A stretch of DNA of 49,131 nucleotides from Candidatus Binatia bacterium (GCA_046260515.1 JBHEPB010000307.1:1-49131); one strand, 5' to 3'. Positions 188 to 28,905 are shown, numbered from the stretch's first letter. The notes: generated by a model from the letters alone, not told the origin. A program made the numbers and translations.

Positions 188-324
188 GAAACCCGGGACA
201 GGTACAGGTTTCTCCGTGCGCAAAATGGGGAGAGCTACATTCTTCTGAAAAATGTCCCTGTCCCCATTTCCGAAACCCGGGACAGGTACAGGTTTCTCCG
301 AAACCTGTACCTGTCCCGGGTTTT
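188..324. repeat. Compound REP/REPIN-like palindromic element (lone type A arm + type C hairpin + full type A hairpin)
   Basis: gaaacccgggacaggtacaggtttctccg at 188-216 and 272-300, inverted arm at 300-324. Intervening imperfect hairpin aaatggggagagctacatt (223-241) / aatgtccctgtccccattt (251-269). Confidence 0.9.
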
Positions 325-409
325 GGGCGGGGCGGGTCGCCATAGCCTTTTTCCTCGTGTAACCGGGGGGCCTCGCGGCCCGTGGCGGGCTCGCACGAGG
401 AGTACACGG

Positions 410-1267
410 ATGAAGTTCGGAATTGCGTTCGCCAACGCCGGCCCTTTCGCCGACCCGGAGATGTTCGCGCACCTGGTCACCACCGCGGAGAGCGTCGGCA
501 TCGAGTCGATCTGGACCGTCGAGCACGTCCTGGTGCCCTGCGGCTACGAGTCCACCTACCCCTACTCCCCCGAGGGCAAAATGCCCGGGCCCGAGGACTC
601 GCCCATCCCCGACCCCTTCGTGGCCCTGTCCTTCGCGGCCGCGCTGACCAGGAAGATCCGCCTCGCCACCGGCGTCCTCATCCTGCCCCAGCGCCACCCG
701 GCCTACGTGGCCAAGGAAGTCGCCTCGCTCGACGTGATCTCCGGCGGCCGCGTCATCCTCGGCATCGGCGTCGGCTGGCTCAAGGAAGAGTTCGACGCCC
801 TTGGCGTTCCCTTCGCGGACCGCGGATCGCGCACACGCGAGTCCGTCGAAGCCATGCGCAGCCTGTGGTCGCCCGGCCCCTCCACCTACCAGGGCAAGTG
901 CTTCTCCTGGAACAAGGTCGAGTCGAACCCCAAACCCGTGCAGGGCGCCAATGTGCCTATCGTCGTCGGCGGCCACGCCGATCTCGCCGCGCGGCGCGCC
1001 GCTCGCTACGGCAACGGCTTCTTCCCCGGCCGCGGCAGCGCGGCGCGCATGAAGGAACTGATCGGCATCCTCCACGAGGAGTGCTCCAAGGTGGGCCGCA
1101 AGCCGGCGGAGATCGAACTGACCGGCGGCATGATGATGCCCGACAAGGACTACGTTTCGCGCTACGAGGAGATGGGCTTCGAGCGCCTCGTCATCGCGCC
1201 GCCCGGCTACGACCGCGACGGCATTTCGCGAGGCTTCGAAGCCTTCGCCGAGGCCTTCCTGAAATGA
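410..1267 (+). CDS. LLM class (probably F420-dependent) oxidoreductase
   Basis: MKFGIAFAN...SIWTVEHVLVP...DPFVALSFAAALTRKIRLATGVLILPQRHP...GRVILGIGVGWLKEEF. GAGGAG RBS before ATG 410. Confidence 0.9.
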   Translation: MKFGIAFANAGPFADPEMFAHLVTTAESVGIESIWTVEHVLVPCGYESTYPYSPEGKMPGPEDSPIPDPFVALSFAAALTRKIRLATGVLILPQRHPAYVAKEVASLDVISGGRVILGIGVGWLKEEFDALGVPFADRGSRTRESVEAMRSLWSPGPSTYQGKCFSWNKVESNPKPVQGANVPIVVGGHADLAARRAARYGNGFFPGRGSAARMKELIGILHEECSKVGRKPAEIELTGGMMMPDKDYVSRYEEMGFERLVIAPPGYDRDGISRGFEAFAEAFLK

Positions 1268-2724
1268 TCGACATCGCCACCGCATCGGCCGTTGAACTCG
1301 CGGCCGCCATCCGTCGCCGCGAGATCGGCTGCCTCGAACTGCTCGACGCCTACGCCGCGCGCATCGCCAGGCACGACAAGGCCCTCAACTCCGTCGTCAC
1401 CCTCGACCTCGATCGCGCCCGACAGAGGGCCCGCGAAGCCGACGAGGCCCTCGGCCGTGGCGAGAACTGGGGCCCCCTGCACGGCCTGCCCATCACCGTG
1501 AAGGATTCCTTCGAGACGGCCGGCATCCGAACCACCGCCGGCTTCCCTCCGCTTTCCTCGCACGTGCCCGCTACCGACGCCGTCATCGTCGATCGCACCG
1601 TGAAGGCCGGCGCCATCGTCTTCGGCAAGACCAACCTTCCGGTGCTCGCCGCCGACCTGCAGAGCTACAACCCCATCTTCGGCGTCACCAACAATCCCTG
1701 GGACACCTCGCGTACCCCGGGCGGCTCCTCCGGCGGCAGCGCCGTGTCCACGGCCTGCGGCTTCACGTCCTTCGAGATCGGCAGTGACATCGGCGGTTCC
1801 ATCCGCACGCCCGCGGGCTGGTGCGGCGTGTACGGCCACAAGCCCACGCACGGCATCATCCCGGGGCGCGGCCACATCCCGGGGCCTCCGGGGATGATCT
1901 CGGAAGCCGACCTCGCGGTGGTGGGACCGATGGCGCGCAGCGCCGCCGACCTCGAACTGCTGCTTGGTCTCCAGGTGGGACCGTCGCCCGACCGCGGCCG
2001 TGCCTGGCGGCTCGATCTCCCGGCGCCGCGCCGCGAGAAACTTTCCGACTACCGCGTGGCCGCCTGGCTCGACGACGAGAACTTCCCGGTGGACGGCGCC
2101 GTGCGCTCGGTGCTGTCGGGCGCCGTGCAGGCCCTGCGCTCGGCGGGCGCCTCGGTGGACGAGGGCGCGCGGCCGGCCCTTCGCCTGGCCGACGTCTACG
2201 ATACCTACTTCCAGCTTCTCGCTCCCGTCATCGTCGCCGGCTTCCCTCCCGAAGAGGTGGACGCCATGACCCAGCTCGCCCAGTCCATGCCCGCCGACGC
2301 TCGCGACGGGCTGACGCTCATGGCCCGCTACGGCACCGCCGCCCACCGCGCCTGGCTGGCCGCCAGTGAGGAGCGCGAGCGTATCCGCGCGGCCTTCGCC
2401 GATTTCTTCACGCGCTACGACGTGCTGCTCACGGCCATCACGCCGGTGGCGGCCATCGCCCACGACCACAGCGAGCCGATGCCGCTGCGATCCATCGAGG
2501 TGAACGGCGCTCCGCGCCCCTACCTCGACCTGCTCGCGTGGATCTCGCCGGCCACCTGCGCCTACCTGCCGGCCACGTCGGCGCCGGTGGGCCGCACGGC
2601 CGGCGGCCTGCCCGTGGGCGTGCAGATCGTCGGCCCCTACCTGGAGGACCGCACGACCATCGATTTCGCGGCCAGGCTGGCCGAGGTGACGGGCGGGTTC
2701 GAAGCCCCGCCGCTGAAAGGCTGA
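1264..2724 (+). CDS. Amidase (amidase signature family)
   Basis: GPLHGLPITVKD, GKTNLP, PGGSSGGS, GSDIGGSIRTPA. ATGA overlap with the upstream stop. Confidence 0.93.
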   Translation: MIDIATASAVELAAAIRRREIGCLELLDAYAARIARHDKALNSVVTLDLDRARQRAREADEALGRGENWGPLHGLPITVKDSFETAGIRTTAGFPPLSSHVPATDAVIVDRTVKAGAIVFGKTNLPVLAADLQSYNPIFGVTNNPWDTSRTPGGSSGGSAVSTACGFTSFEIGSDIGGSIRTPAGWCGVYGHKPTHGIIPGRGHIPGPPGMISEADLAVVGPMARSAADLELLLGLQVGPSPDRGRAWRLDLPAPRREKLSDYRVAAWLDDENFPVDGAVRSVLSGAVQALRSAGASVDEGARPALRLADVYDTYFQLLAPVIVAGFPPEEVDAMTQLAQSMPADARDGLTLMARYGTAAHRAWLAASEERERIRAAFADFFTRYDVLLTAITPVAAIAHDHSEPMPLRSIEVNGAPRPYLDLLAWISPATCAYLPATSAPVGRTAGGLPVGVQIVGPYLEDRTTIDFAARLAEVTGGFEAPPLKG

Positions 2725-2803
2725 CGCGCGCGCCGCGAAACGGCGCTGGAGGCCGGCGCGTCAGCGAAACGGCGCCGTCTTCCAGCGTCGCAAGGGAGGA
2801 ACC

Positions 2804-4489
2804 GTGAGCAACACGCAACTGTACCGGGGCGGCCGCGTGAGGAGCATGGCCGGGCCCGCCGCCACCGCCCTCGTCGTTCGCGACGGCCGCGTCGTGGCAA
2901 CCGGCAACGACGACGACATGAAGACTGCAGCCGGCGCCGGCGCCGAGGTGATCGATCTCGACGGCGCCGCCGTGCTCCCGGGTTTCGTGGACACCCATCC
3001 CCACCTCTTCCACTTCAGCGTCCTCGAGTATCCCCTGGTCAAACTCTGGGACGCGGCCGACCACGACGACATCGTCGGCCGTATCCGCGAGCGCGCCGCG
3101 ACCACCGAGGCCGGAAGCTGGATCATGGCCACGCCGGTGGGCGAGCCCCACTACTTCATCCGCCGTTCGTACCGGGACCTGGCCGAACACGTGCTGCCCG
3201 ACCGCCACGTCCTCGACCGCGCCGCCCCCGACCATCCCGTGTGGATCCAGGCCTGGGGACCCACCACGCCCAACGTCTGCGTGTTCAATTCGATGGCGCT
3301 GCGCGAACTCGGCATCGACCGCGCCACCCCCACACGCCAGTGCAACGTCTGGATCGAGAAGGACGCCGACGGCGATCCCACCGGACGCCTGAGCGGTCCC
3401 GTCAACACCTACTACACGGGCGATTCGTGGATGGACGAGCTGCTGTCGCGGCTGCCCCTGCTCGATCCGAGCATCGCGGTGGCCGCCACGCTGGACGGCA
3501 TCGCCCGCTACCACCGGATGGGCGTCACGACCATCTACGAGGGCCACGTGATGGGCGCGGCCGAGATCGGCCTCTTCCAGGCTCTTCGGCAGATGGAGCA
3601 GCTGCGCATGCGCGTGCTGACGTCGCTGGAGGCCGAGCAGTACTCGATGCCGTGGCAGAAGCCGGCCACCGAGGAAGAGTTCCTCGCCACGCTGGCCCAG
3701 GCGCGCGAAATGACGTCGCTCCATGACGATCTGCTGCGCCACAACGGCGTCACGTTGTCGCGGGGCGGGCCGCTCAATCCCGGCTTCCTGCGCATGCGAG
3801 ATCCCTACATCGGCCCCTATGGCGAGCTGACGCGGGGCCGCGAGTTCGTGGCGCCCGAGCGCGAGACCATCGCGCTCGACTACTGCGCGACCCACAACCT
3901 GCGCCTCAACTTCATCGGCGCCGGCTACGCCGACCACGACGAGTTCCTGGCTCGCGCCGAGAAGCTGGCGGCGCGGGTGCCGGTGAAGCACCGGCGCTGG
4001 ATCCTCCAGCACAACTACCTGTGCACGCAGGACCACGCGCGGCGCTACGCCGAGCTCGGCTTCGTGGTGACCACCAGCATGTCGTTCAGCTGCGCCAAGG
4101 GTGACCTCTTCGAGAAGCGCATCGGCGCCCACGTGTGGGAAGACCTGATTCCGCTGAAACGCCTGCTGGAGGCGGGCCTCACCGTGGCCGCCGGCAGCGA
4201 CTGGGGCCCGAAGAACATCTTCGAGCACATCGCGCTGGCGGAGACCCACGAGTTCTGGGGCAGCGGTCGCCGCAACGACGGCCCCGCCCAGAAGGTTTCG
4301 CGTGAGGAAGCCGTGCGCATGTGGACCTGCGACGCCGCGGCTGCCCTCGGCTGGAAAGGCATCGGCTCCCTCGCCCCCGGCCACCACGCCGACTTCATCG
4401 TCCTCGACCGCGACATCCTCACCTGTCCCACCGAAGACCTCCCCGCCACGAAAGTCCTCCGCACCCACCTCGCCGGCGCCGCCGTGTGA
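2804..4489 (+). CDS. Metal-dependent amidohydrolase (amidohydrolase 3 / YtcJ-like)
   Basis: IDLDGAAVLPGFVDTHPH (HxH), AAGSDWGP, GSLAPGHHADFIVLDRD. GGAGG RBS before GTG. Confidence 0.9.
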   Translation: MSNTQLYRGGRVRSMAGPAATALVVRDGRVVATGNDDDMKTAAGAGAEVIDLDGAAVLPGFVDTHPHLFHFSVLEYPLVKLWDAADHDDIVGRIRERAATTEAGSWIMATPVGEPHYFIRRSYRDLAEHVLPDRHVLDRAAPDHPVWIQAWGPTTPNVCVFNSMALRELGIDRATPTRQCNVWIEKDADGDPTGRLSGPVNTYYTGDSWMDELLSRLPLLDPSIAVAATLDGIARYHRMGVTTIYEGHVMGAAEIGLFQALRQMEQLRMRVLTSLEAEQYSMPWQKPATEEEFLATLAQAREMTSLHDDLLRHNGVTLSRGGPLNPGFLRMRDPYIGPYGELTRGREFVAPERETIALDYCATHNLRLNFIGAGYADHDEFLARAEKLAARVPVKHRRWILQHNYLCTQDHARRYAELGFVVTTSMSFSCAKGDLFEKRIGAHVWEDLIPLKRLLEAGLTVAAGSDWGPKNIFEHIALAETHEFWGSGRRNDGPAQKVSREEAVRMWTCDAAAALGWKGIGSLAPGHHADFIVLDRDILTCPTEDLPATKVLRTHLAGAAV

Positions 4490-4547
4490 AACCCGGGACA
4501 GGTACAGGTTTTCGCGAAGCGAAAACCTGTACCTGTCCCGGGTTTTC
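4488..4547. repeat. REP/REPIN-like palindrome, type A
   Basis: gaaacccgggacaggtacaggttttcgc-gaa-gcgaaaacctgtacctgtcccgggttttc. Fills the whole gap between two convergent genes and overlaps both TGA stops. Confidence 0.93.
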
Positions 4548-5676
4548 ACGCTTCGAGGTGGGCGAGGGTTTCGACGTGGTCGGTTTGGGGGAAGAGGGCG
4601 TAGGGGGTGAGGCGGCGCAGGCGGAAGCGGCCTGCTGCCGTGAGGCGGGCGACGTCGCGCACGAGGGAGTCGGGGTCGCAGCTCACGTAGAGCAGGGTCG
4701 CGGGGTGCGCGCGGCCGAGGGCGCCGATCACCGCGTCGTCGAGGCCTTTGCGCGGGGGATCGACAATGACGACGGAGGCGCCGTCGATCACCTCCGCGCA
4801 GGTCGCCGCATCACCGGGGGCGACGACAGCCGCGGCGCTACGCTGCCTGGGCATCGCCGCGAGCCCCATCGCCAGGCCCCGCAGCCCGGCCGGATTCACC
4901 TCGTTGAAGCGCACCGACGAAGCGCGCCCGAGGAGCCCGAGGCCGAAGGCGCCGACGCCGCAGTAGAGGTCCGCCACGATCGCGCCGTCGGGAACGCGCG
5001 AGTGCACGTCCGCGACGAGTCGGTCGGCAAGATCGAGGTTGCTCTGCCCGAACGCGCCCGGAGGAAAGAAGACCTCCGCGCCGCCGATGCTCTCGCGCAC
5101 CGCCTCCTCGCCCGCGAGCAGGCGCCAGTCCTCGCCGAAGATGGCATTGCCGCGTCCCGTGTTGCCGTTCCACCACAGCCCCTGGAGTTTGTCGCCGAGG
5201 GCCCGGACCAGCTCGGCCGCCATCGGCTGCAGCGACTTCTCGCAGACGTCGTTGGCCACCAGTGCTACCTGCACCCGCCCGCTCGGGCGCTCGACCACCA
5301 CTTGCACGTAGCGCAGCAGCCCGACGTGGGGACGCTCGGCGTAGGGAGGCACGCCGGCGCTGCGCATCGCCGCGCGGATGGCGCGCGCCGCCGCGTTGAT
5401 GCGCGGATGCTGGATGTTGCAGTTGGGGATGTCCGCGATGTTGTGGGAGCCTTCCTGGAAGATGCCGAGCTTGGGCGAGGCGGCCCGTCCCCTCACCGCC
5501 AGTCGGGCGCGGACGCGGTAGCCGAGAGGCGCGCCTTCGACCACGGCGTCCAGAGTCGCTCCGCTGCGGGCGGCCAGTTCTTCCAGAAGGGCGGCGGCCG
5601 ACGCAGCGATGCCCTTCTCGCCGTAGCGGGGACAACCGGGACAGGGCGGGCGATGCGTGCAGGGCGGGATTCTCAT
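4546..5676 (-). CDS. RNA m5U methyltransferase (TrmA/RlmC/RlmD family, no TRAM domain)
   Basis: N-terminal CxxxxxCxxC Fe-S motif, FGQSN, DLYCGVG, VDPPRKGL, YVSCDP, FPQTDHVE. Confidence 0.88.
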   Translation of the reverse strand: MRIPPCTHRPPCPGCPRYGEKGIAASAAALLEELAARSGATLDAVVEGAPLGYRVRARLAVRGRAASPKLGIFQEGSHNIADIPNCNIQHPRINAAARAIRAAMRSAGVPPYAERPHVGLLRYVQVVVERPSGRVQVALVANDVCEKSLQPMAAELVRALGDKLQGLWWNGNTGRGNAIFGEDWRLLAGEEAVRESIGGAEVFFPPGAFGQSNLDLADRLVADVHSRVPDGAIVADLYCGVGAFGLGLLGRASSVRFNEVNPAGLRGLAMGLAAMPRQRSAAAVVAPGDAATCAEVIDGASVVIVDPPRKGLDDAVIGALGRAHPATLLYVSCDPDSLVRDVARLTAAGRFRLRRLTPYALFPQTDHVETLAHLEA

Positions 5677-5817
5677 GGAAGGAGTGAGGGAAGCTCGAGC
5701 AGGAAGGGGCGGGCGGGGCCCGGCATCCCACTTGCCGCGAACGCCGGGAATCGTGGCTATCGTCCGCCGCCGGTCGCGGCTACTTGTATCCCCGGCGTCG
5801 AAGAAGGCGCAATCGCG

Positions 5818-6462
5818 ATGAACACCGACGAAGTCAGGATCCGCTTCCCATCAGGCGACGTTGAACTCGACGGGCGCCTCGCTCTCCCCGAGACCTGCAC
5901 CCGCGCCTGCGTCGTCTGCCACCCCCACCCTCTCTACGGGGGCGACATGAGCAACCCCGTCGTCGTCGCCGTCACCCGCGCCATGGCCGGCGCCGGCATC
6001 GCCACCCTGCGTTTCGACTTCCGCGGCGTCGGCGAAAGCGGCGGCTCCCACGGCGGCGGAGCGCCCGAAGTGGAAGATGCCCGCGCCGCCGTCGATGCGC
6101 TTCGACAGGCGACCAGCCTCACCAACGTCGCCATAGCGGGGTATTCCTTCGGATCGGTGATCGCGCTGAGGCTGGCGGCGGAGAACGCAGCCGCCGCTGC
6201 GAAAGTAGCAGCCGTCGCCGCCATCGCCCCGCCCCTGGTGATGTTCGACGCCGCGGGACTGGCCGCCGGCCTCCGCATCCCCTTGCTCGTGATGGCCGGC
6301 GATCGCGACACCTATTGCCCGCGCCCGGATTTCGAATCGCTCCGCGAGCGTCTGCCCGCTTCGGCCGAAGCCGTCGTGGTGCCCGGCGCCGATCACTTTT
6401 TTTCCGGCCGCGAGGCCGACGTGGCGGCCGCGGTGCTGGGCTGGATCCAGCGCATCACCTGA
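5818..6462 (+). CDS. Alpha/beta-fold hydrolase
   Basis: CHPHPLYGGDMSN, LRFDFRGVGES, nucleophile elbow GYSFG, GDRD, GADHFF. Confidence 0.9.
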   Translation: MNTDEVRIRFPSGDVELDGRLALPETCTRACVVCHPHPLYGGDMSNPVVVAVTRAMAGAGIATLRFDFRGVGESGGSHGGGAPEVEDARAAVDALRQATSLTNVAIAGYSFGSVIALRLAAENAAAAAKVAAVAAIAPPLVMFDAAGLAAGLRIPLLVMAGDRDTYCPRPDFESLRERLPASAEAVVVPGADHFFSGREADVAAAVLGWIQRIT

Positions 6463-6490
6463 AGCCGCCCTGTCCGAGAGGAGGACGACC

Positions 6491-6853: not shown

Positions 6854-6945
6854 AAGGGGCCTGCGCGCAGGCGACGGGACGTTACGCTTCGCCCGTCAGG
6901 GCACCGGAGGCGTCGCGCCGACGACGGGACGACGCGCCCCGCGCG

Positions 6946-8953: not shown

Positions 8954-8970
8954 CGCCGGAGCGGTCGGGC

Positions 8971-10123: not shown

Positions 10124-10481
10124 TGGTGGAGGCGGGGGGAATCGAACCCCCGTCCGAAAGTAATCCACAAAAACCTCTACACGCTTAGTCCTGGATTTAA
10201 TCTCATTCGGCGGAGCGCCCCAGAACAGGCTCCCGACGAACCAGCCGTCTACTGTTTCGGGCCGGCACCAGAAGGCGTAGCGCCGGATCCCTATCCCGAA
10301 TTGTTACGCCCTGTTCCACACATCGGGAGTGTCTGGGCAGGACGCCCGCCGCCTAATTAGGCAGCGAGAGCGTAATCGGTGTTATCCGCAGTTACGTTGT
10401 TTTTTACCGGATTAACGAGTCGGCAAAGCGCTCGGCGTGCAGCTCCTGCTTCATGACCCTCGTCGAGACCAGATCGCCCCC
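10124..10481 (-). ncRNA. ssrA: tmRNA; tag peptide (A)ADNTDYALAA at 10389-10357
   Basis: 5' GGGGGCGATCTGGTCTCGAC, 3' GGTTCGATTCCCCCCGCCTCCACCA, G3:U acceptor pair. Internal frame GCG GAT AAC ACC GAT TAC GCT CTC GCT GCC TAA. 358 nt. Confidence 0.97.
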
Positions 10482-11485: not shown

Positions 11486-12556
11486 ATGGCATCCCCAGCA
11501 GCTCGCCCCGCCCCCAGCCTGGTCGTGCGCGCCGGCCCCGAGGCCCTGGCGACGATCCGCAGAGAGGGCTTCCGGCCCGACGACTTCTCCACGATGCTCG
11601 GTGCCTCCGGCGGGCCGAAGTGGCTGGTCCTGTCGCGCCTCGACCGGATGCTCGCGCGGCGCTTCGTCGCGGGGCGGTCGGCGCCCCTGCACGCCTTCGG
11701 CACGTCGATCGGGGCTTTTCGCCACACCTGCCATGCCCAGGCCGACCCGGCGGCGGCTTTCGACCGTTTCGAGGAGGCCTACGTCGCGCAGGCCTACGAG
11801 AGGAAGCCGACGCCGGTCGAGGTGACGGACGAGAGCCGCCGCATCCTCGACGTGATGCTGGCCGGCGGCGACGATCCGCTGGCCCATCCCCACCTTCGCC
11901 TCCACGTCGGCACCGTGCGCAGCCGCAGGCCGGCTGCCACCGACGCGCGGGCAGCGCTCGTCCTCGGGCTTGGCGCGGCGGCGGCGGCCAACGCGGTGTC
12001 GCGGCGCCTGCTCGGGGTGTTCTTCGAAAGGGTGGTCTTTCACGCGACCGCCGCACCGGTGTTCGGCTTCGGCGACCTCGCCACCCGCCACGCGCGCCTG
12101 GACGCGGCCAACCTGCGCGCGGCCACGCTGGCCAGCGGCTCCATTCCGCTCGTGATGGCGGCCATCGAGGACGTGCCCGGCGGGCCGCGGGGGTTGTACC
12201 GCGACGGCGGCATCACCGACTACCACTTCGCGATGGACTTCGAGGCGCCGCCGGGGCTGGTGCTCTACCCCCACTTCTTCGACAGCATCGTGCCCGGCTG
12301 GTTCGACAAGATGCTCACGTGGCGCCGGGCCACGGGGCCGCTGCTGGCGCGCACGGTGTTCGTCGCGCCGTCGCGCGAGTTCGTGGCCACGCTTCCGGGC
12401 GGCAAGGTTCCCGACCGCGAGGATTTCGTCGCCTACTCCACCGCCGAGCGCCAGCGCATCTGGAAGCAAGTGCTCGCCGCTTCCCAGCGCCTCGCCGACG
12501 ATTTCGAGCACCTCCTCGAGTCCGACCGCCTGGTCCAGGCGGCTCGGCCTTTTTGA
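11486..12556 (+). CDS. Patatin-like phospholipase family protein
   Basis: GASGGPKWL oxyanion loop, GTSIG nucleophile, ASGSIP, YRDGGITDYH. Confidence 0.85.
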   Translation: MASPAARPAPSLVVRAGPEALATIRREGFRPDDFSTMLGASGGPKWLVLSRLDRMLARRFVAGRSAPLHAFGTSIGAFRHTCHAQADPAAAFDRFEEAYVAQAYERKPTPVEVTDESRRILDVMLAGGDDPLAHPHLRLHVGTVRSRRPAATDARAALVLGLGAAAAANAVSRRLLGVFFERVVFHATAAPVFGFGDLATRHARLDAANLRAATLASGSIPLVMAAIEDVPGGPRGLYRDGGITDYHFAMDFEAPPGLVLYPHFFDSIVPGWFDKMLTWRRATGPLLARTVFVAPSREFVATLPGGKVPDREDFVAYSTAERQRIWKQVLAASQRLADDFEHLLESDRLVQAARPF

Positions 12557-12616
12557 AACCCGGGACAGGTACAGGTTTTCGCTGCGCGAAAACCTGTACC
12601 TGTCCCGGGTTTTTTC
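12555..12616. repeat. REP/REPIN-like palindrome, type A
   Basis: gaaacccgggacaggtacaggttttcgc-tgc-gcgaaaacctgtacctgtcccgggttttttc between convergent stops. Confidence 0.93.
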
Positions 12617-13005
12617 TACAGGATCCGCTTCGAGGAGGCGTCTGGATCTCGCCGCTCGCCGGCTCGCGGCTCGCCCGGGTTTTTCGGATTTTCGCGGAGG
12701 ACGAAGCGGAGGCCTTGGGCGGTTTCCAGGGACATGGCTTCGGAGAGGGGCTCGTCGATGACGTCGATGGTAACGTCGGCGTTTCGGTAGGGCTCGATCA
12801 TCGCCGACTGCAGGTAGACCGGGATGCCGTCGACTTCGGCGGCCTTCTCGGCGGCCGACGTGAGGACGGCGTCTTCGTAGAGATGCGGCGCGGTGCCCTC
12901 GCAGCAGCCGCCATCGATCACAAAGGAAAGGGGTCCGCTGCGCTCGGCGCGGATGCGGTCGAGCACCTGGGCGGCGCGGGGGGAAAGGCGAACGGTGGTC
13001 ATCAT
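12616..13005 (-). CDS. DUF779 family (HesB-like) protein
   Basis: GGCCEGTAP motif and SLETAQGLRFVLR. Lies directly after an aldehyde dehydrogenase, the usual context for this family. Confidence 0.75.
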   Translation of the reverse strand: MMTTVRLSPRAAQVLDRIRAERSGPLSFVIDGGCCEGTAPHLYEDAVLTSAAEKAAEVDGIPVYLQSAMIEPYRNADVTIDVIDEPLSEAMSLETAQGLRFVLRENPKNPGEPRAGERRDPDASSKRIL

Positions 13006-15424: not shown

Positions 15425-17239
15425 ATGGCCACCTTTTTCGTATTCCTGTCGCTGGTTGTCCAATCGGCCGTCGCGGTCGTCGCCATTCGCGCGCCGCGCG
15501 CGCCCCACACCCGTGCAGCGTGGTGGACCCTGGCGGCTGCTGCCGGCTTCAGCGCGGTGCGCCGCGGGATCGTCTTCATCGAGCACGTCCGCGGCACGCG
15601 CGACGTGCCGAGCCTCGTCCTCGAGGAACTGCTCGTTGTTTTCGTCTCCGTCCTGCTCTTCCTCGGCGTCCTGCAGCTGCGGCGCATCTGGGACGACGCC
15701 GACCGCGCCGCGGCCGCGGCGACCAAACGCGAGCAGGCCTTTCGCGAGGGCGAGGAGCTGTGGCAGCGCATCTTCGAGTTCGCGCCCGACGGCTACATCC
15801 TTCTCCACCTGGACGGACGGCTGGGCCGCCTGAACGTGGCGGCCGCCGAGATCGCGGGCGTGGACCGCGAGGGGAGCGAGGGGCGCAACATCCTCGAACT
15901 CGGCATCCTGGACGAAGACGGCATGGCCCAGGCCGCGCGCAACCTCGCCGCGCTTCAGCAGGGCACCGATCCCGGTCCGGCCGAGTACACCTTCCATCGC
16001 AGCGACGGCACCCAGAGGCAGGTCGAGATCATCGGCTACCTGATGGACGTGCGCGGCGAGAGGCTGATGCTCACCATCATCCACGACATCACGCGGCGTC
16101 GCAGCATCGAGGCCGAACTCCACCGCAGCCGCCTGCGCCTGGAGGAAGCCCAGCGCGTGGCCGGCATCGTCACGTTCGAGATCGATTTCCGGCGCGGCGT
16201 GATGTGGCTCAGCAACAAGGTGCCGGGGCTGGAGTCGGCCACGCTGCGCGACGGGGGCACCGAGATCCCGCTGGATACCGCGTTATCCTTCGTGCACCCC
16301 GACGATTTCGACCGCGTGATCCGGTCCATGGCGGCGGCTGGGGCGCCGGGGGGAAGCGGCGACGTGGTGGTGGAGTATCGCCAGCGCGACGTCGTGAGCG
16401 AGGGAGTGGCGACGGTGCACACCACGGCGCGCGCCGAGAAGGACGAGCACGGCGACGTGGTGCGCATGTTCGGCGCCACGCTCGACATCACCGCGATCCG
16501 TGCGGCCGAGCAGGAGATCCGCACGCTCAATGCCGTCCTCGAGGAGAGGGTGAAGGAGCGCACGTCCGAACTCGAGCGGGCCGTCGACGAGCTCGAAGCC
16601 TTCAGCTACTCGGTCTCCCACGACCTGCGTTCGCCGTTGCGCGCGATGGCGGGCTACAGCGAGCTGGTTCTGGAAGAGGATGGCGGGAGCCTTTCAGAAT
16701 CTTCGCGCGAGCACCTCGAGCGCATCCGCGCTTCGTCGGTGCGCATGGCGGGACTCATCGACGGGCTGCTCTCGCTTTCGCGTCTGACCCGGGCGACGCG
16801 CAACGACACTCCCGTAGACCTGTCGGAGATCGCGAGCGGCATCCTCCGCGAGCTGCGCATTGCGGAGCCCGACCGGGAAGTGGAAGTGGTGGTCCAGGAG
16901 GGCCTGGAAACCGTGGCCGATGCCGGGATGATGTCGCTGGTGCTGCAGAACCTGCTCGACAACGCCTGGAAGTTCAGCCGCTCGACGCCCCGGCCGCGCA
17001 TCGCCTTCGGGCGCACCCACCAGGGCGTCTATTTCGTGCGCGACAACGGCGTGGGGTTCGATCCCGCCCAGGCGGGCAAGCTGTTCCGGCCCTTCGTGAG
17101 GCTGCACCGCACGGACGAGTTCGAGGGCACCGGGATTGGGCTGGCGACGGTGGACCGCATCGTGCGCCACCACGGCGGCCGCGTCTGGGCCGAAGGACAC
17201 ATCAACAAAGGCGCCACCTTCTGGTTCACCCTCGCGTGA
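15425..17239 (+). CDS. Membrane PAS-domain sensor histidine kinase
   Basis: About three N-terminal hydrophobic segments, two PAS/PAC-like regions, H box SYSVSHDLRSPL, NLLDNAWKF, DNGVGFD, GTGIGLA. Confidence 0.93.
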   Translation: MATFFVFLSLVVQSAVAVVAIRAPRAPHTRAAWWTLAAAAGFSAVRRGIVFIEHVRGTRDVPSLVLEELLVVFVSVLLFLGVLQLRRIWDDADRAAAAATKREQAFREGEELWQRIFEFAPDGYILLHLDGRLGRLNVAAAEIAGVDREGSEGRNILELGILDEDGMAQAARNLAALQQGTDPGPAEYTFHRSDGTQRQVEIIGYLMDVRGERLMLTIIHDITRRRSIEAELHRSRLRLEEAQRVAGIVTFEIDFRRGVMWLSNKVPGLESATLRDGGTEIPLDTALSFVHPDDFDRVIRSMAAAGAPGGSGDVVVEYRQRDVVSEGVATVHTTARAEKDEHGDVVRMFGATLDITAIRAAEQEIRTLNAVLEERVKERTSELERAVDELEAFSYSVSHDLRSPLRAMAGYSELVLEEDGGSLSESSREHLERIRASSVRMAGLIDGLLSLSRLTRATRNDTPVDLSEIASGILRELRIAEPDREVEVVVQEGLETVADAGMMSLVLQNLLDNAWKFSRSTPRPRIAFGRTHQGVYFVRDNGVGFDPAQAGKLFRPFVRLHRTDEFEGTGIGLATVDRIVRHHGGRVWAEGHINKGATFWFTLA

Positions 17240-17311
17240 AACCCGAAACCCGGGACAGGTACAGGTTTCGCTCCGCGAAACCTGTACCTGTCCCGGGTTT
17301 CACCGGGTTTC
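17238..17311. repeat. REP/REPIN-like palindrome, type A, with duplicated termini
   Basis: gaaaccc-gaaacccgggacaggtacaggtttcgc-tcc-gcgaaacctgtacctgtcccgggtttc-accgggtttc. Outer IR cgcgtgaaacccg/cgggtttcacgcg spans 17233-17316. Confidence 0.93.
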
Positions 17312-17795
17312 ACGCGCGGCGGCGCATGGCGCGGGCGATTTCGCGCTTGGCGTCCTGGTCGCGGGCGGTGGCCCTCTTGTCGTGGAGCTTCTTGCCCTTG
17401 GCCAGGCCGAGTTCGGCCTTCAGGCGGCCGTTCTTGTCGAAGTAGATCTTGGTGACGACGAGGGTGAGGCCCTCGAGTTTCACGCGGCCGGCCAGGCGGT
17501 CGAGTTGGCGGCGGTGCAGCAGGAGCTTGCGGGGCCGGTCCGGATTGTGGTTGGCGGCCACCCCGGCGGGCTTGTAAGGGGCGAAGCGGCAACCCACCAG
17601 GAAGGCCTCGCTCTTGTCGATCCTCACGTAGGAGTCGGTCAGGTTGACGCCGCCCTCGCGCGCCGAGCGGACCTCAGTACCCGTCAGCTGCATCCCCGCC
17701 TCGAGCGTCTCCTCGATGAAGTAGTTGTGGAAGGCCTTGCGGTTGTCCGCAACGCGACCGCTGGTCTCCTTGGTGCGCGCCGCCGACTTCGCCAT
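17310..17795 (-). CDS. smpB: SsrA-binding protein
   Basis: NRKAFHNYFIEETLEAGMQLTGTEVRS, NHNPDRPRKLLLH, GKKLHDKR. Confidence 0.97.
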   Translation of the reverse strand: MAKSAARTKETSGRVADNRKAFHNYFIEETLEAGMQLTGTEVRSAREGGVNLTDSYVRIDKSEAFLVGCRFAPYKPAGVAANHNPDRPRKLLLHRRQLDRLAGRVKLEGLTLVVTKIYFDKNGRLKAELGLAKGKKLHDKRATARDQDAKREIARAMRRRA

Positions 17796-17835: not shown

Positions 17836-17890
17836 GAAAACCCGGGACAGGTACAGGTTTCGAAGAAACCTGTACCTGTCCCGGGTTTTT
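17836..17890. repeat. REP/REPIN-like palindrome, type A
   Basis: gaaaacccgggacaggtacaggtttc-gaa-gaaacctgtacctgtcccgggttttt. Overlaps the panD TAA. Confidence 0.93.
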
Positions 17891-18302
17891 AGCCCCAGAC
17901 TTTTTTCAGGTGGGCCTGGCCGGCGATTTCGTGCTGGCGGCCGAGGTCCACGGGGCGGTTGCGGTCGTCCACGAAGACGACCTTGGGCTTCCAGGCCAGG
18001 GCCTCTTCCTCGGGCATCCAGCCGAAGGCGGCGATGATGATGAGGTCGCCCACGTTCACCTTGTGGGCCGCGGCGCCGTTGACGCAGACCACGCCCGAGC
18101 CCGGCTGGCCCTCGATGGCGTAGGTCTCGAAGCGTTCGCCGTTGTTCACGTCCCAGATGCACACCGCCTCGTTCTGGATGATCCCGGCCCCGCGCAGGAG
18201 GTCCGGGTCGATCGTTACGCTGCCTTCATAGTGAAGGTCGGCGCCGGTGATGTTGGCACGGTGGATCTTGCCGCGAAGCATTTTGCGCATGTTGCTCTGC
18301 AT
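17889..18302 (-). CDS. panD: Aspartate 1-decarboxylase
   Basis: MLRGKIHRANIT.ADLHYEGSVTID (G-S cleavage site), NGERFETY, NGAAAH. Confidence 0.96.
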   Translation of the reverse strand: MQSNMRKMLRGKIHRANITGADLHYEGSVTIDPDLLRGAGIIQNEAVCIWDVNNGERFETYAIEGQPGSGVVCVNGAAAHKVNVGDLIIIAAFGWMPEEEALAWKPKVVFVDDRNRPVDLGRQHEIAGQAHLKKVWG

Positions 18303-19230: not shown

Positions 19231-19243
19231 GACGCCCCTCTGC

Positions 19244-20113: not shown

Positions 20114-20215
20114 CGTCCGACCTCCCGTAAGGAGAAGGAGTGTCGGTAGCTGCGGCCCTCGCGAGGGACGGGCGCAGAAGGCCCGCCGTGCGTCTGCCGT
20201 TCCAACTTTCGACCT

Positions 20216-22328: not shown

Positions 22329-22356
22329 AGCGTTGGTGCTGCGCAGCCACGGGACG

Positions 22357-22914
22357 ATGCCCCGCCGCGCGGGTGCGGCGCGCCATGTCGGCACAGCGCT
22401 GGCGGTCGCCGCTTGCTGCTTCGCGGCGCCGGCGGCTCACGCGCAGGTCGGCAGCGGCGCGGAGCGCTACGAAGTCACCATCACTCCTCCGAAGAGACCG
22501 GGTAGCGAGGCGGCGCCGGCCGAGGTGGGTGATGCGCCTGCTGCCGAGGGCGCGGCGCCGACGCCGGCGGCCGATGGTGCCGCTCCACCGGTCGCGGTGG
22601 CGCCGGCCAGTCCCGCCGCGGGGATCAGCCTTCCTCCCGCCGATGCCGGAGCGGTGACGGCCAAGCCGGCCGCCAACCTTCCGATGCGCACGCTTCAGGT
22701 GGGCGCCTTCCGCCACCGCGGCAGCGCCAAAGAACTGCAGGGCGAGCTGGCCGCCGACTTTCCCGACGTGACGATGATCGAAGTGAAGTCGGGCGGCGAG
22801 CCTCTCTACCGCGTCAACGTCGGACGCCTGCCCAAGGGCAAGGCCCTCGACGAGCTGCGCGGCCGCCTGGCCGCGGCCGGCCACGCGTCCTTCGACGTAG
22901 AAGCGCCGCCGGCT

Positions 22915-22929
<15 letters not shown>
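22357..22929 (+). CDS. Secreted SPOR domain protein
   Basis: Signal peptide ending AHA, Pro/Ala linker, LQVGAF...LYRVNVG. Confidence 0.8.
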
Positions 22930-24040
<1,111 letters not shown>

Positions 24041-24054
<14 letters not shown>

Positions 24055-24958
24055 GCAGGCAATCCTCCAAACTTTTCTGGGGACGGAAACCGAGAAGGGC
24101 AGTTGCACGCGTGCCGTCCGCAAGCGTGCGCCAGCGAAGGTGCGCCCCGTCCATGGCCGCGGGTGCAACGCGGTCGGCCAGCGGCCCGGCCAGGGGCGGC
24201 GCGAAGACGCCGGCGGCGGCCAGCAGCCTCGAGAGCGGCACCACCTGGCGGCCCACCAGGTTAAGAACTTCGCCGCAGCGCTGGTCGATGGCGAGCACGA
24301 TGCCGCAGACGAGGTCGTCGTAGTGGATCACCTGGCAAGGCGGGTCGTAGCCGAGGACACGCACGGGAAAGGCCGCTTTCAGAAGGGCACCGAGGGGGCT
24401 GTCCACGGGGCCGCCGAGCACACTCGCGGTGCGCAGCACGCCCACGCGCACTCCGCTCGTCACCGCCCAGGTGACGAGGCGGCGCTCCACCGCACGCAGG
24501 CCCTCGGCCCAGCGCGCGTGAGCGGAAGCGAACACCGTTTCGCGCGGCAGGCGGCTGCGCTCATCGAAGACCAGGGGCGAGTCCACGGCCACGCCGTATA
24601 CAGCCGTGGACGACAGCATCAGCAGGGCCGGAGCGCTTGCGCCCCTTTCCACCGCGCGCTCGAGGGCGGAGACGATCACGTCGGCCAGCGCCGCGTCCGT
24701 CGCCCACGGCTCGGCCGGCGTGACCGGCGACCACGACAGGGCCAGCACCACGAGCGTCGACGGCTGCAGGTCGAGCAGCAGGTCGGCCAGCTCGCGCGCG
24801 CAGGAGGGAGAAGCAGGATCGAGGAGCTTGTCGCCGGCGGCGGCGGTGGTCGAGACGACCACGACGCGGCGATCGGCATCGGCGGCCACCATGGCGCGCA
24901 CGACATCGTGGGCCAGGGCGTCACGGCCGATCACGAGGATGGTTTCCCTGCCCGCCAC
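24041..24958 (-). CDS. NAD-dependent epimerase/dehydratase-like protein (degenerate)
   Basis: LSSTAVYG, VLRTASVLG, GYDPPCQVIHYDD, LGFRP. Canonical GxxGxxG and YxxxK not seen. Start uncertain. Confidence 0.7.
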
Positions 24959-24984
24959 GAGGGCGGCATAGCGCCACACCTTCG

Positions 24985-25013
24985 TTGACAAGTCGAGGAT
25001 GCCCCCCTAGCGT
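24985..25013 (+). promoter_or_regulatory. Sigma70-type promoter, probably giving a leaderless mRNA
   Basis: TTGACA-N17-TAGCGT, then 7 nt to ATG 25021. Confidence 0.7.
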
Positions 25014-25020
25014 CCCGCGC

Positions 25021-25461
25021 ATGGAATCCCAGTCGCACACCGAGGTGGTCCGGGCCCCCCTCGACCTCTGTTTCGACACGCTGGTCGACTTTGCGAAGTA
25101 CCCGGAGTGGTTCGGCGTGATCCGCTCGGCGCGCATCGAAGAGGCCGACGACGCGGCCGGCCGCTGGACCGTCCGCTACGAGCTGGACGCCATCCTGAAG
25201 ACCATCACCTACACGCTGGCCTACGACAGCGAGCGCCCCGGCCTGCTGACCTGGAAGATGACGACCGGGGACCTCAAAGCCATCGAGGGCCGCTACGACC
25301 TGGTCGAACTGGAGCCGGGCCTCGTGGAAGCGACCTGCACCCAGGCCATCGACGTCGGCCTGTGGGTTCCGGGCATCGTCCGCCGGGCCTTCGAGAGCAC
25401 GGCGGTGCGGGACTCGGTGCGCGAGTTCAAGCAGGCGGCGGAGGCGAAGGCGGGGGCCTGA
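25021..25461 (+). CDS. SRPBCC / polyketide cyclase-like (Coq10/RatA-like) protein
   Basis: CFDTLVDFAKYPEW, YTLAY, LTWKMTTGDLKAIEGRYDL. Confidence 0.82.
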   Translation: MESQSHTEVVRAPLDLCFDTLVDFAKYPEWFGVIRSARIEEADDAAGRWTVRYELDAILKTITYTLAYDSERPGLLTWKMTTGDLKAIEGRYDLVELEPGLVEATCTQAIDVGLWVPGIVRRAFESTAVRDSVREFKQAAEAKAGA

Positions 25462-25574
25462 CGGCCGCGGTCCGTCCCGCTCGTTTCCCGGTTTCTTTTC
25501 CCGGCCCGTTGGGCCGCCGGCCGCCCATTTCCGGCTCGCTTTCGTGGGCCCCGCCACAAGCCCCCTCCCAAACG

Positions 25575-25607
25575 AAAAACGCCGGCGCCCTTTCGGGCGA
25601 CCGGCGT
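25575..25607 (-). terminator. Intrinsic terminator after tRNA-Ala
   Basis: Minus strand ACGCCGG-T-CGCCC-GAAA-GGGCG-CCGGCGT-TTTT. Confidence 0.8.
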
Positions 25608-25631
25608 ATCTTGGCCGCGTACTGTCTTAGG

Positions 25632-25707
25632 TGGTGGAGACGAGCGGGATCGAACCGCCGACCTCCTGAATGCCATTCAGGCGCTCTCCCAGCTGAGCTA
25701 CGTCCCC
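25632..25707 (-). tRNA. tRNA-Ala (GGC)
   Basis: GGGGACGTAGCTCAGCTGGGAGAGCGCCTGAATGGCATTCAGGAGGTCGGCGGTTCGATCCCGCTCGTCTCCACCA. 76 nt, G3:U70, encoded CCA. Confidence 0.98.
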
Positions 25708-25724
25708 TCGAGCGCGGCGGGCGG

Positions 25725-25753
25725 ATACTAGACAGGACGGGCGTAGGGGACAA
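25725..25753 (-). promoter_or_regulatory. Sigma70-type promoter of tRNA-Ala
   Basis: TTGTCC-N17-TAGTAT. Confidence 0.6.
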
Positions 25754-25869
25754 CCGGCGGTGGGCCTTCGGACGGCCCCAAGCGATCCCCGCAGCCGCCG
25801 CCCCCGCGTGGACTGTCACGGGCTGCGCCCATAGACTCGGTCGCCCGCAAATTCCCGAAGGAGAGCCCG

Positions 25870-26487
25870 GTGCCCATTCTCGCCCTCGTCCGACACGGTC
25901 AGTCCCAATGGAACCTGGAAAACCGCTTCACCGGCTGGGTGGACGTCCCCCTCACCGACCTCGGCCTCACCGAGGCCCGCCGCGCCGGTGAGCTCCTGAA
26001 GGAGGCCGGCGCCGACTTCGACATCGCCTTCACCTCCGATCTTGTCCGCGCCCAGGAAACCCTGCGCATCATCCTCGAGGTGCTCGGCCGCAGCGACCTG
26101 CCCACCGAACGCGACAAGGCCCTGAACGAGCGCCACTACGGCGCCCTCCAGGGCCTCAACAAGGCCGAGACGGCCGCGAAGTACGGCAAGGACCAGGTGC
26201 ACATCTGGCGCCGCAGCTACGACGTGCCGCCGCCCGAAGGCGAGAGCTTGAAGGACACCGCCGCGCGCACGCTGCCCTACTTCGACGCGCGCATCCTTCC
26301 CGAGCTTCGCAAGGGCCGCAACGTGATCGTCGCCGCCCACGGCAACAGCCTCCGCTCCATCGTGATGCAGCTCGACAACCTGACGCGTGAGCAGGTGCTC
26401 GAACTCAACATCGATACCGGGGTGCCGCTGGTTTACGAGATGGCCGACGACGGCAAGGTGCTGTCGAAGAGAATCCTTCGGCCATGA
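25870..26487 (+). CDS. gpmA: 2,3-BPG-dependent phosphoglycerate mutase
   Basis: [43 protein letters not shown]. Confidence 0.96.
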
Positions 26488-27503
26488 CCCACACCCGCGC
26501 CATGGGCAAGATGGCCGTTGGCACGGCCATCGGCGCGCTCTGCCTGTGGATGGCGTTGCACAAGGTGGACCTGTCCGAGGTGGGCGCGGCCCTGCGCAGC
26601 TTCGACGGGCGCTGGGTGATCGCGGCCTTCCTCGTCAGCCTGGCCATCCAGCTGCTGCGCGCCCTGCGCTGGCAGGTCGAACTGACACCCCTGGCCCGCC
26701 TGCCCTACCCGCTGATGTGGCAGGTCGTGTCGGTGTCCTACATGCTCATCAACGTGCTTCCCTTCCGCCTCGGGGAGCCGGCCCGTCCCCTGCTCCTGTC
26801 GTGGAAGACGGGGCTGCCCATCCCGGCCATCGTCGGCAACTGGGTCTTCGAGAAGATGATGGACACGGCGGTGATGGTGCTGCTCGTGCACTGGACCCTG
26901 ATGATGGCGGACCTGCCGCCGTGGGCCCACCGCGCTTCGACCGGCAGCCTCGTCATGTTCTCGAGTCTTCTCCTGCTCGTGGTCGGCTTCTGGCTTCACG
27001 GCGAACGCTTCTACGATCGCACCCTGGCGCGCGTGCTGTCGGTGCATGCCGGCGAAAAGCTGCGCAAGATGCTGAGGGTGGCCCGCCAGGGGCTGCAGAT
27101 CCTTCCGGACCGCCGCCTGGTCGGCGCCGTCTTCGTCATCACGCTGGCGCTGTGGCTGCTGCCCATCCTGTCGAGTTGGCTGCTCATCCAGGCCTTCGGC
27201 TTCGACCTGCCGGTGGCGGCGGCCTTCGTGGTCTTCGTGTGCGTGGGCCTCGGCACGGCGCTGCCCAATCCGCCGGGCATGGTCGGCGTGTTCCAGATCG
27301 CTTCGGTGTACGCGCTGGGCGTTTACGACGTCCCCCAGCCCGAGGCGGTGGCCTACGGCATCGTGCTCAACGCCGTGCAGTTCTTCTCGCTGGTGCTCCA
27401 GGGCGTGCTGGCCATGCCGTGGATCGGCGTCGGGCTCGGCACCATTGCCAAAGCCGCGGTCGAGACTCCGCCGTCGGATTCCTGTCCGGCCTCGCCGCGC
27501 TGA
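26484..27503 (+). CDS. Lysylphosphatidylglycerol synthase TM / flippase-like membrane protein
   Basis: [35 protein letters not shown], multiple hydrophobic segments. Confidence 0.85.
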
Positions 27504-27507
27504 ACCC

Positions 27508-28821
27508 GTGGGAAGAACCAACCAGCCTTCCCTCTTCGGAGGCGAATCGTCCGGAGACGAAGGCAGCGCTGCGCCGCGCGCGGCGGGCGCCGCTCCTCGC
27601 GAACGCATCCCCTTGGCCGAGCGCCTGCGTCCTCGCAGCGTGGACGAGGTTGCCGGGCACGCCGCCCTGCTCGGGCCCGGAACTTTTCTCGGCGGGATGC
27701 TGAGGGGCACCTCGCCGCCGCGGTCGATGCTGCTGTGGGGACCTCCGGGCAGCGGCAAGACCACGCTGGCCCGCATGCTGGCGGGCAGCGCGGGCTACAC
27801 CTTCGTGTCGCTGTCGGCGGTGCTGGCCGGCGTGAAGGAACTGAGGGAAGTGCTCGGCGAAGCCCGCGATCGGCGGCGCCTGACCGGCAAGGGCACCATC
27901 CTGTTCGTCGATGAGATCCACCGCTTTCACAAGGGGCAGCAGGACGCCTTCCTTCCCCACGTGGAGAGCGGCGACATCGTCTTCGTGGGAGCGACCACCG
28001 AGAATCCTTCGTTCGAGATCAACGCTCCGCTGCTGTCGCGCTGCCGACTCGTGGTGCTCCAGACGCTTACCGATGACGATGTCGCGGCGGTGCTCGACCG
28101 CGCCATTGTCGATGTGGAGCGCGGCCTCGGTGGGCTCGGGCTGGAACTGGAGGCCGAGGCTCGGGGTTTTCTGGCGGCCATGGCCCAGGGCGATGCGCGC
28201 AGCGCGCTTGGCGCTCTGGAAGTTGCGGCGGACCTCGCGCAGGCGGCCGGCACCAAACGCATCGACCGCGAACGGGCGGCCGAAGCCCTGCAGCGTAAAG
28301 CCCTGCGCCACGACTCGACGGGAGAGGAGCACTTCAACGTCGTCTCCGCCTTCATCAAAAGCATGCGGGCGAGCGACGTGGACGCCAGCCTCTACTGGCT
28401 GGCGCGTTTGATCGAGGGCGGCGAGGATCCCCTCTTCATCGCGCGGCGCGTGGTGATCTTCGCCAGCGAGGACGTGGGCCTGGCCGACGCCGCCGCGCTA
28501 CCGCTGGCGATCGCCGCCCGCGATGCCGTGCACTTCGTGGGCATGCCCGAAGGACGCATCCCGCTGGCCCACGCCGTCGCCCACCTGGCGCGGGCCCCCA
28601 AGTCGAACCATGCCTACGTGGCCATCGACGCTGCCTTGGAAGAGGTGAGGACGAGCGGCGCCCTGCCCGTCCCCCTGCACCTGCGCAACGCGCCGACCGC
28701 GATGATGAAGAAGCTCGGCTACGGCCGCGGTTACTCCTACCCCCCCGACGCCGCCGACGGCGACAAGCCCCAGCCCTGCCTCCCCGAAGCCCTCCGAGGC
28801 CGCCGCTTCTTCCCAAAGTAG
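27508..28821 (+). CDS. rarA: Replication-associated recombination protein A (MgsA/RarA)
   Basis: PLAERLRP, WGPPGSGKTT, FVDEIHRF, GATTENPSF, SAFIKSMR, ASEDVGLAD, VPLHLRNAPT. Confidence 0.95.
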   Translation: MGRTNQPSLFGGESSGDEGSAAPRAAGAAPRERIPLAERLRPRSVDEVAGHAALLGPGTFLGGMLRGTSPPRSMLLWGPPGSGKTTLARMLAGSAGYTFVSLSAVLAGVKELREVLGEARDRRRLTGKGTILFVDEIHRFHKGQQDAFLPHVESGDIVFVGATTENPSFEINAPLLSRCRLVVLQTLTDDDVAAVLDRAIVDVERGLGGLGLELEAEARGFLAAMAQGDARSALGALEVAADLAQAAGTKRIDRERAAEALQRKALRHDSTGEEHFNVVSAFIKSMRASDVDASLYWLARLIEGGEDPLFIARRVVIFASEDVGLADAAALPLAIAARDAVHFVGMPEGRIPLAHAVAHLARAPKSNHAYVAIDAALEEVRTSGALPVPLHLRNAPTAMMKKLGYGRGYSYPPDAADGDKPQPCLPEALRGRRFFPK

Positions 28822-28905
28822 AAACCGGGGACAGGTACCGGTTGCGCTGCGTGCAACCGGTACCTGTCCCCGGTTTCCGAAAACCTGTACCTGTCCCGGG
28901 TTTTC
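28821..28905. repeat. Compound REP/REPIN-like element (perfect type B hairpin + lone type A arm)
   Basis: gaaaccggggacaggtaccggttgc (28821-28845) / gcaaccggtacctgtccccggtttc (28853-28877), then gaaaacctgtacctgtcccgggttttc (28879-28905). Confidence 0.92.

Follow-up and report, generated by a model that had tools for sequence, protein, structure and literature searches.

A GAAA-footed REPIN family in a Candidatus Binatia genome, its RAYT transposase, and its fusion to neighboring stop codons

What brings a dispersed hairpin to lie directly on the stop codons of its neighbors is the question raised by a 49,131-nucleotide (nt) stretch of DNA from a Candidatus Binatia bacterium (GCA_046260515.1, JBHEPB010000307.1:1-49131), called here, in its whole length, the window. 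An earlier note had described six loci in it that carry a shared palindromic arm, and nine gene 3' ends whose stop codons overlap the palindromes. Both were present. The 24-base arm had 14 matches in the window with at most three mismatches, all at these six loci, versus none in 100 shuffles. Because the G+C content of the window is 68-71%, a codon-usage gene caller was written and trained on the long open reading frames (ORFs) of the source genome; it picked all nine bordering ORFs, each with a stop codon that overlaps or abuts the A-rich foot of an arm, and all nine had Pfam matches reaching almost to the last residue. Folded as RNA, the arm doublets had predicted energies of -51 to -62 kcal/mol (z scores of -10 to -13.6), with the stop codons within the stem base. 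At the Rfam gathering score the hairpins had no match, and the only matches in the window were a transfer-messenger RNA (tmRNA) and one tRNA.

The palindromes very probably constitute a population of REPINs, that is, doublets of repetitive extragenic palindromic (REP) sequences, together with their REP-associated tyrosine transposase (RAYT), which is encoded on another contig, C78. The source genome (G000) comprises 4.06 Mb in 364 contigs and is 84% complete; 3,523 genes were called, covering 89% of the sequence, with 2,435 TGA, 597 TAG, and 216 TAA stops. A total of 279 arms were found in 147 clusters, among which were 91 plain +/- doublets and 33 single arms, the remainder being groups; a further 15 clusters also contained the +/- doublet. 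These counts are lower bounds, because repeats break assemblies. Among the 273 arms with at most two mismatches, 225 were identical to the consensus. The unit has the form GAAA-core-TTTC with a core of the GGGAC type, and all ends, read from outside, show G and then three or four A, a foot recorded at 87 of the 102 ends that face a gene 5' end. Nearly all of the repeats lay outside genes, with only 5 of the 141 ends facing a gene 3' end located inside a called ORF.

A composite element of about 160 to 250 bases also occurs in this genome, at C363:20939-21110 and about 17 other places (e.g., C113:441-695, C60:35497, and C214:32227). It opens with REP arms, one or two in number, continues with a long palindrome of high GC content (GGTCGGGCGCCGGGGC ...), and closes with a partial arm; 34 arm-like matches were counted.

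A single match to the Pfam family Y1_Tnp (PF01797) was found in the genome, with 48 bits against a cut-off of 23. The corresponding ORF (C78:2320-3072, 250 residues) has two direct (+) arms upstream and one inverted (-) arm downstream, and the foot of the downstream arm supplies the TAG stop of a leuD-like gene that comes next, on the opposite strand. NF047646, the NCBIfam model for the REP-associated tyrosine transposase, was the sole match (E value of 8.6e-18, 64.6 bits), and since the score falls under the 80-bit equivalog cut-off, the protein was read as belonging to a divergent RAYT clade. Residues H74 and H76 (the HUH motif), Y115, and Y136 were invariant across 14 aligned homologues, and Y136 is presumably the catalytic residue. 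When solved structures were searched with the alignment profile, E. coli TnpA-REP (4er8) ranked first (E value of 1.1e-6), ahead of IS200/IS605-type (ISDra2-type) chains; the single RAYT sequence had no match among solved structures at an E value of 0.01. The closest named relatives came from metagenome-assembled genomes labelled Myxococcales (about 50% identity), with many from Planctomycetota; a transposase is a poor taxonomic marker. A RAYT bracketed by the arms is the REPtron arrangement, and the proposal that a RAYT drives a REPIN-like family, made when no transposase had been seen in the window, was thus borne out by a linked gene elsewhere in the genome.

Single-copy homologues of this RAYT were present in four of five congeners (genomes G001 to G005, same genus), with identities of 61% in G001, 60% in G005, 55% in G002, and 48% in G003; none was found in G004, which is 96% complete, with the G000 query. 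Each RAYT was flanked by the repeat family of its own species, with the cores CCCGGGACAGGTACAGG in G000, GGGGTCAGACCCC in G001, and TCGGGGACAGACAC(C/T)GA in G005, and further variants of the flanking family were found in G002 and G008. The A-run/T-run foot and the GGGG(A/T)C-type core were retained in most congener families, whereas the remainder differed. Downstream of the RAYT, a similar flank was shared by G000, G001, and G005; in G000 this flank is the terminal part of the leuD-like gene.

The link between these elements and stop codons is virtually certain to be real, and it is strong, though it concerns only about half of the ends. The 253 outer ends of the elements divided into 141 that face a gene 3' end, 102 that face a gene 5' end, and 10 without a called gene nearby. 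At 65 of the 141 3'-facing ends (46%), the foot shared bases with the stop codon or abutted it, a condition termed fused here; another 44 ends lay at 1 to 10 bases from the stop, 27 lay farther away, and at 5 a called ORF entered the element. Fusion at every gene end touched, as had been claimed, thus held in the window, but genome-wide it held for these 65 ends, with 109 of the 141 within 10 bases of a stop. In contrast, the 5'-facing ends were all at least 7 bases from the gene, apart from one overlap, with a median of about 73. The fused stops comprised 41 formed by T plus the GA of the foot, 14 TAG-type stops, and 10 TAA stops in which T replaces the G of the foot. T preceded GAAA at these 41 of 65 fused ends and at only 6 of the 102 5'-facing ends; being frequent at the former and rare at the latter, it comes from the gene flank and not from the element.

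The enrichment at zero distance was clearest between tandem genes, where fusion to the upstream stop was observed for 27 of 53 elements. Under free placement 1.5 such cases would be expected, or 11.2 if the 40 nt ahead of the following start are reserved. Convergent gaps were the most often occupied by REPINs (7.6%; tandem gaps, 2.8%; divergent gaps, 3.3%); 8 of 29 convergent pairs were fused on both sides, and the residual convergent spacer had a median of 11 nt with a REPIN (n = 37) and 39 nt without (n = 448). It is extremely improbable that the overlap merely follows from chance and the compactness of gene ends, with tiny convergent spacers forcing elements against both stops. Some relatives do have convergent spacers of just 3 to 9 nt at the same sites, but others have 51 to 142 nt there, the median of convergent spacers lacking a REPIN is 39 nt, and in tandem contexts the elements had a median of 61 nt of room on the far side and were nevertheless fused in about half of the cases. 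The tandem count rules out chance and compactness as the sole cause.

The gene ends themselves were compared with those of the congeners over the last 60 residues of each well-scored gene in ten G000 stretches for which syntenic DNA was obtained; these stretches were repeat rich and not randomly chosen. Related hairpins were numerous in G001 and G002, the G002 arm differing from the G000 arm by one base that is mirrored in both arms, whereas G003, G004, and G005 had only 2, 3, and 1 matches, gene-flank matches included. The presence or absence of elements at orthologous sites differed among the congeners. All three checks named in the earlier note, namely, zero-distance enrichment at stops, a linked RAYT, and this polymorphism, thus favored its interpretation. 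Among 30 REPIN-adjacent genes with at least two orthologues, 18 stopped where most relatives do, 7 were shorter than all relatives, 5 were mixed, and none was longer than all. The 49 control genes from the same stretches included 37 with the same stop position, none shorter than all, 3 longer than all, and 9 mixed. The excess of genes shorter than all congeners (7/30 versus 0/49) gave a Fisher p value of 0.0007; such tests overstate independence, because the congeners are related to each other.

Several of the genes in the window had clipped C termini. The amidohydrolase with its stop at 4487 lacked the final 4 to 9 residues carried by 9 of 9 relatives, the histidine kinase (stop at 17237) lacked 1 to 27 residues of its relatives, and the patatin-like and mgsA-like proteins were 1 to 2 and 2 to 5 residues shorter, respectively, than those of five congeners. 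The stop positions of smpB and panD were identical in all five congeners. The DUF779 gene (12616-13005, minus strand) extended 9 to 23 codons past the stops of three congeners, up to the REPIN foot; the 24-residue tail that it carries beyond the Pfam domain is of low complexity and is ended only by that foot.

Whole spacers had been replaced as well. At C39:41472/41529, both stops were in the ancestral position and the 82- to 119-nt convergent spacer of the relatives, including a native terminator-like hairpin, was gone. At C295:11763, the REPIN occupied the place of a native terminator-like hairpin present in G003. The congener spacers at the 17237-17312 site measured 5 to 142 nt. The proposal that the elements supply new stops or erode the flanking DNA was therefore upheld for the 7 genes shorter than all relatives and for these missing spacers, which are a minority, whereas 18 of the 30 genes keep the ancestral stop.

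Different REP families shared the same gene ends across species. For 16 of the 30 REPIN-adjacent gene ends of G000, one or more of G001, G002, G003, and G005 had an arm from the family of another species no more than 70 nt from the orthologous stop, compared with 3 of 50 control ends (p = 2.6e-6); a first pass had given 14/23 versus 2/44. Several of the congener-family arms at these shared slots were likewise fused to the stop. Counted over loci syntenic to G000 repeat sites, a small and biased sample, other-family arms were fused to a stop in 4 of 12 cases in G005, 2 of 13 in G001, 2 of 3 in G002, and 1 of 3 in G003. At the ends orthologous to 12554, 17237, and 17889, G001 and G005 carried hairpin families of their own; for example, in G001 a TGA runs into the A run of a GGGGTCAGACCCC unit.

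An explanation with about an even chance of being correct is that the elements sit in long-lived slots at gene ends, that the DNA between the coding sequence and the hairpin was lost at insertion or during later replacement, and that a flanking T or TA together with the GAAA foot makes the stop. The REPINs are very probably the non-autonomous partners of one single-copy HUH/Y1 tyrosine transposase, the RAYT, which, by analogy with E. coli TnpA-REP, may bind the folded single-stranded REP and cut beside its foot. In sister species the gene 3'-end slots are filled by other REP families, each matching the flanks of the RAYT of that species. A left-hand T joined to GAAA yields TGA, TA joined to the foot yields TAG, and a foot of TAAA in place of GAAA yields TAA. 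Since the foot completes a stop with the flank, read-through is avoided when an element abuts an ORF or takes the place of its final codons. All other sequence separating the hairpin from the coding region would be dispensable, and it is missing, so that elements pile up at zero spacing next to gene 3' ends only; next to 5' ends a spacer would be preserved by promoter and ribosome-binding sequences. The fusion would then be due to loss of the spacer, either when the element inserted or afterward through trimming or replacement, and not to recognition of the stop codon. The very stable RNA hairpin, with the stop codon in its stem, may in addition act as a barrier at the 3' end of the transcript.

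Several observations weigh against this explanation, speak for the alternative that integration is aimed at stop codons, or do both; with such targeting the spacing would be zero from the moment of insertion, and that alternative is not very likely. The ancestral stop position was kept exactly in 18 of the 30 adjacent genes, as stop targeting also predicts. The sequence TGAAGG of G005 corresponds to T[element]GAAGG at C363:932, which looks like a clean insertion inside a stop with no DNA lost, and at C295:8211 the far-side spacer was as long as the entire G001 spacer. Consensus-identical and presumably young arms were fused about as often (57/125) as diverged arms (8/16). Gradual spacer erosion does not fit this result, except where a site is far older than the sequence resident in it. 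Given the reuse of the same gene ends by different families, the sites may indeed have such an age, which would reconcile the missing age effect with the missing spacers. Finally, the gene calls were those of the in-house caller on a fragmented assembly in which repeats are likely under-assembled, and the congener comparison drew on the ten repeat-rich stretches.

Stop targeting is countered in turn by the searches for a sequence target. The 102 flanks of the 5'-facing ends had no shared motif and no TA or other target duplication, and T before GAAA was rare there, as noted above. A GA remnant of the old stop beyond the element, as expected on the far side after insertion into a TGA, was found in 2 of 27 fused tandem cases. 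In G003 and G004, which lack A-footed repeats at these sites, the stop was followed by A at 9 of 41 orthologous REPIN sites and 16 of 78 control sites, with no excess, and TGAAA occurred at 1.8% of ordinary G000 gene ends. Furthermore, neither the 7 clipped genes nor the whole missing spacers are explained by pure insertion. For the suggestion in the earlier note that the family targets stop codons, no sequence target was thus found in three tests, namely, flank motif, GA remainder, and stop followed by A. A miniature inverted-repeat transposable element (MITE) with a target-site duplication such as TA was also considered and rejected; the flanks are inverted, not direct, and those at 5'-facing ends have no common motif.

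It is also conceivable that zero spacing was selected for a function, with the hairpin serving as a two-way transcription stop, a protector of the mRNA 3' end, or a termination brake acting through ribosome stalling and trans-translation; this possibility is compatible with the others and appears improbable as the cause of fusion. The hairpins are very stable, are bordered by a run of A and a run of T, and hold the stop inside the stem; REPINs favor convergent gaps and occupy the positions of the native terminator-like hairpins of relatives; and in E. coli, according to earlier work cited in the text of PMC12306157, a REP at a distance below 16 nt from a stop reportedly stalls ribosomes and so lowers translation. 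With respect to the features of an intrinsic terminator, however, the GC-rich hairpin was present but the T run comprised just 3 to 4 bases at 225 of the 253 ends, and a simple terminator scan was passed by two of the six window loci, on one strand only. REPINs also occurred in 16 divergent gaps, and a hairpin a few bases farther away would terminate or protect equally well, so that exact fusion is not predicted by function alone.

In a more extended and rather doubtful version of the slot explanation, RAYT-driven turnover of the slots would rewrite gene ends, in that a cut at the foot and subsequent trimming would sometimes clip the last 1 to 9 codons, a new stop would arise from the flanking T and the GA of the element, and the hairpin with the stop in its stem would tie the termination of translation either to 3'-end formation of the transcript or to rescue by tmRNA. 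If this is true, a selfish repeat family continually alters C termini and 3' ends throughout a bacterial genus.

Parts of this pattern have been published for other REP systems. The text of PMC3733652 places convergent REPs less than 20 bp from both ORF ends and same-direction REPs near the upstream ORF, reports that GTAG REP termini often supply a TAG stop, and describes the TIRYT genes, which are RAYT-like and have GGGGWSAS-motif repeats at their flanks, an arrangement called TIRtrons. Stop-proximal REPs and stop-supplying GTAG REPs being already on record in the literature at hand, the stop fusion described here is an extreme case of a reported habit. As in the REPtrons of Escherichia, Pseudomonas, and Stenotrophomonas, the palindromes are short, of high copy number, and mostly in intergenic inverted doublets; one single-copy RAYT at a fixed locus is bracketed by units; and gene 3' ends and convergent gaps are preferred. 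Unlike GTAG REPs, which bring TAG, the G000 elements have a GAAA foot and no GTAG, so that the element contributes a partial stop to which the flank adds T or TA, and all three stop codons are found at the fused ends (41 TGA, 14 TAG type, and 10 TAA among 65). The transposase differs from REPtron RAYTs in its score below the equivalog cut-off and in its length, 250 residues compared with 165 in the 4er8 chain.

As far as the text of PMC3733652 describes them, TIRtrons share with the G000 system a RAYT-like gene without GTAG REPs and flanking inverted repeats that also occur singly, paired, or clustered in the genome. The GGGGWSAS motif, compared as worded in that text, fits the variant arm (GGGGACAG) and congener families (GGGGTCAG and GGGGACAG; G001, G005, and G008), but the main G000 consensus, CGGGACAG, is one base off the motif. 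Uncharacterised, the term first applied to the family, thus needs some qualification, given this resemblance to the repeats of TIRYT genes and the stop-supplying termini known from the same text; a literature search on REP, REPIN, or RAYT together with stop codons returned nothing on this particular family, on clipped C termini, or on slots shared by different families, and the additional files of PMC3733652 may list related families. In comparison with the E. coli stop-proximal REPs (within 15 nt of the stop, with stalling and trans-translation), as far as the cited text covers them, a large share of the G000 copies likewise place a stable hairpin right after the stop, whereas here the stop is within the stem.

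A different kind of intergenic repeat, the MIRU repeats of mycobacteria, has ends that overlap the stop and start codons of its neighbors; these are translated direct repeats in operons and not RAYT hairpins. The G000 elements resemble MIRU as intergenic repeats overlapping stop codons and differ from them as hairpins accompanied by a RAYT.

Beyond the well-studied proteobacteria, the system provides a clear and countable population of REPINs that comes with its RAYT and has a GAAA rather than a GTAG foot. Quantified here, and mentioned in passing or absent in the literature at hand, are the 46% stop sharing, the clipping in 7/30 versus 0/49 genes, and the shared slots in 16/30 versus 3/50. 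The slot pattern, if confirmed in finished genomes, would be useful for understanding how REPINs persist and how they cost or benefit their hosts. For annotators, stop codons and short C-terminal tails beside such hairpins are partly repeat DNA.

Table 1. Palindromic elements of the window and the stop codons that adjoin them
Feature	Element or stop	Whole extent	Strand or arms	Basis
Single REP arm (GAAA foot, CCCGGGACAGGTACAGG core, TTT)	188-211	188-211	+	Exact arm match
REPIN, inverted doublet	272-324	272-324	Arms 272-295 (+), 301-324 (-)	Arm match
REPIN between convergent genes	4488-4546	With stops, 4487-4548		Arm match, gene calls, Pfam, RNA fold
Amidohydrolase stop, within stem base of 4488-4546 REPIN	TGA 4487-4489		+	
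Methyltransferase stop, within stem base of 4488-4546 REPIN	TGA 4546-4548		-	
REPIN between convergent genes	12555-12613	With stops, 12554-12618		Arm match, gene calls, Pfam
Patatin-like gene stop, at 12555-12613 REPIN	TGA 12554-12556		+	
DUF779 gene stop, at 12555-12613 REPIN	TAG 12616-12618		-	
REPIN nested in outer partial feet (17238-17244 and 17302-17311)	17245-17301	17237-17312		Arm match, gene calls, Pfam
Histidine kinase stop	TGA 17237-17239		+	
smpB stop	TGA 17310-17312		-	
REPIN after panD	17837-17889	With stop, 17837-17891		Arm match, gene calls, Pfam, RNA fold
panD stop, overlapping foot	TAA 17889-17891		-	
Variant REPIN (core CCGGGGACAGGTACCGG) with third arm (28881-28904)	28821-28877	28819-28906		Arm match, gene calls, Pfam
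mgsA-like gene stop, at variant REPIN	TAG 28819-28821		+	
truA-like gene stop, at 28821-28904 element	TGA 28904-28906		-	

Some of the window loci (Table 1) had features of their own. An element was indeed present at the locus that the earlier note placed at 17238, with its full arm starting at 17245; position 17238 itself begins an extra partial foot, GAAACCC. The stops at 17237 and 17310 overlap these outer partial feet (GAAACCC ... GGGTTTC) and not the full arms, and from the sequence, 17238-17311 looks like one element set within the remnant of another REP foot. In the DUF779 gene, six consecutive A separate the TAG at 12616 from CCCGGG, and the gap between the panD REPIN and the smpB start is 40 nt.

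The window also holds the tmRNA gene mentioned above (RF00023, 199.5 bits; 10124-10481, minus strand) in addition to smpB (17310-17795, minus strand), whose stop is joined to a REPIN foot. That both lie in one window with a repeat suspected of provoking trans-translation is curious but probably a coincidence. Between the single arm and the first doublet, at 213-270, there is a second, imperfect palindrome (arms AAAATGGGGAGAGCTACATT and AAATGTCCCTGTCCCCATTT) from a minor family with the core GGGGACAGGTACA and A/T feet. About 18 arms of this family are present genome-wide, and the same core is found among the families of congener G005.

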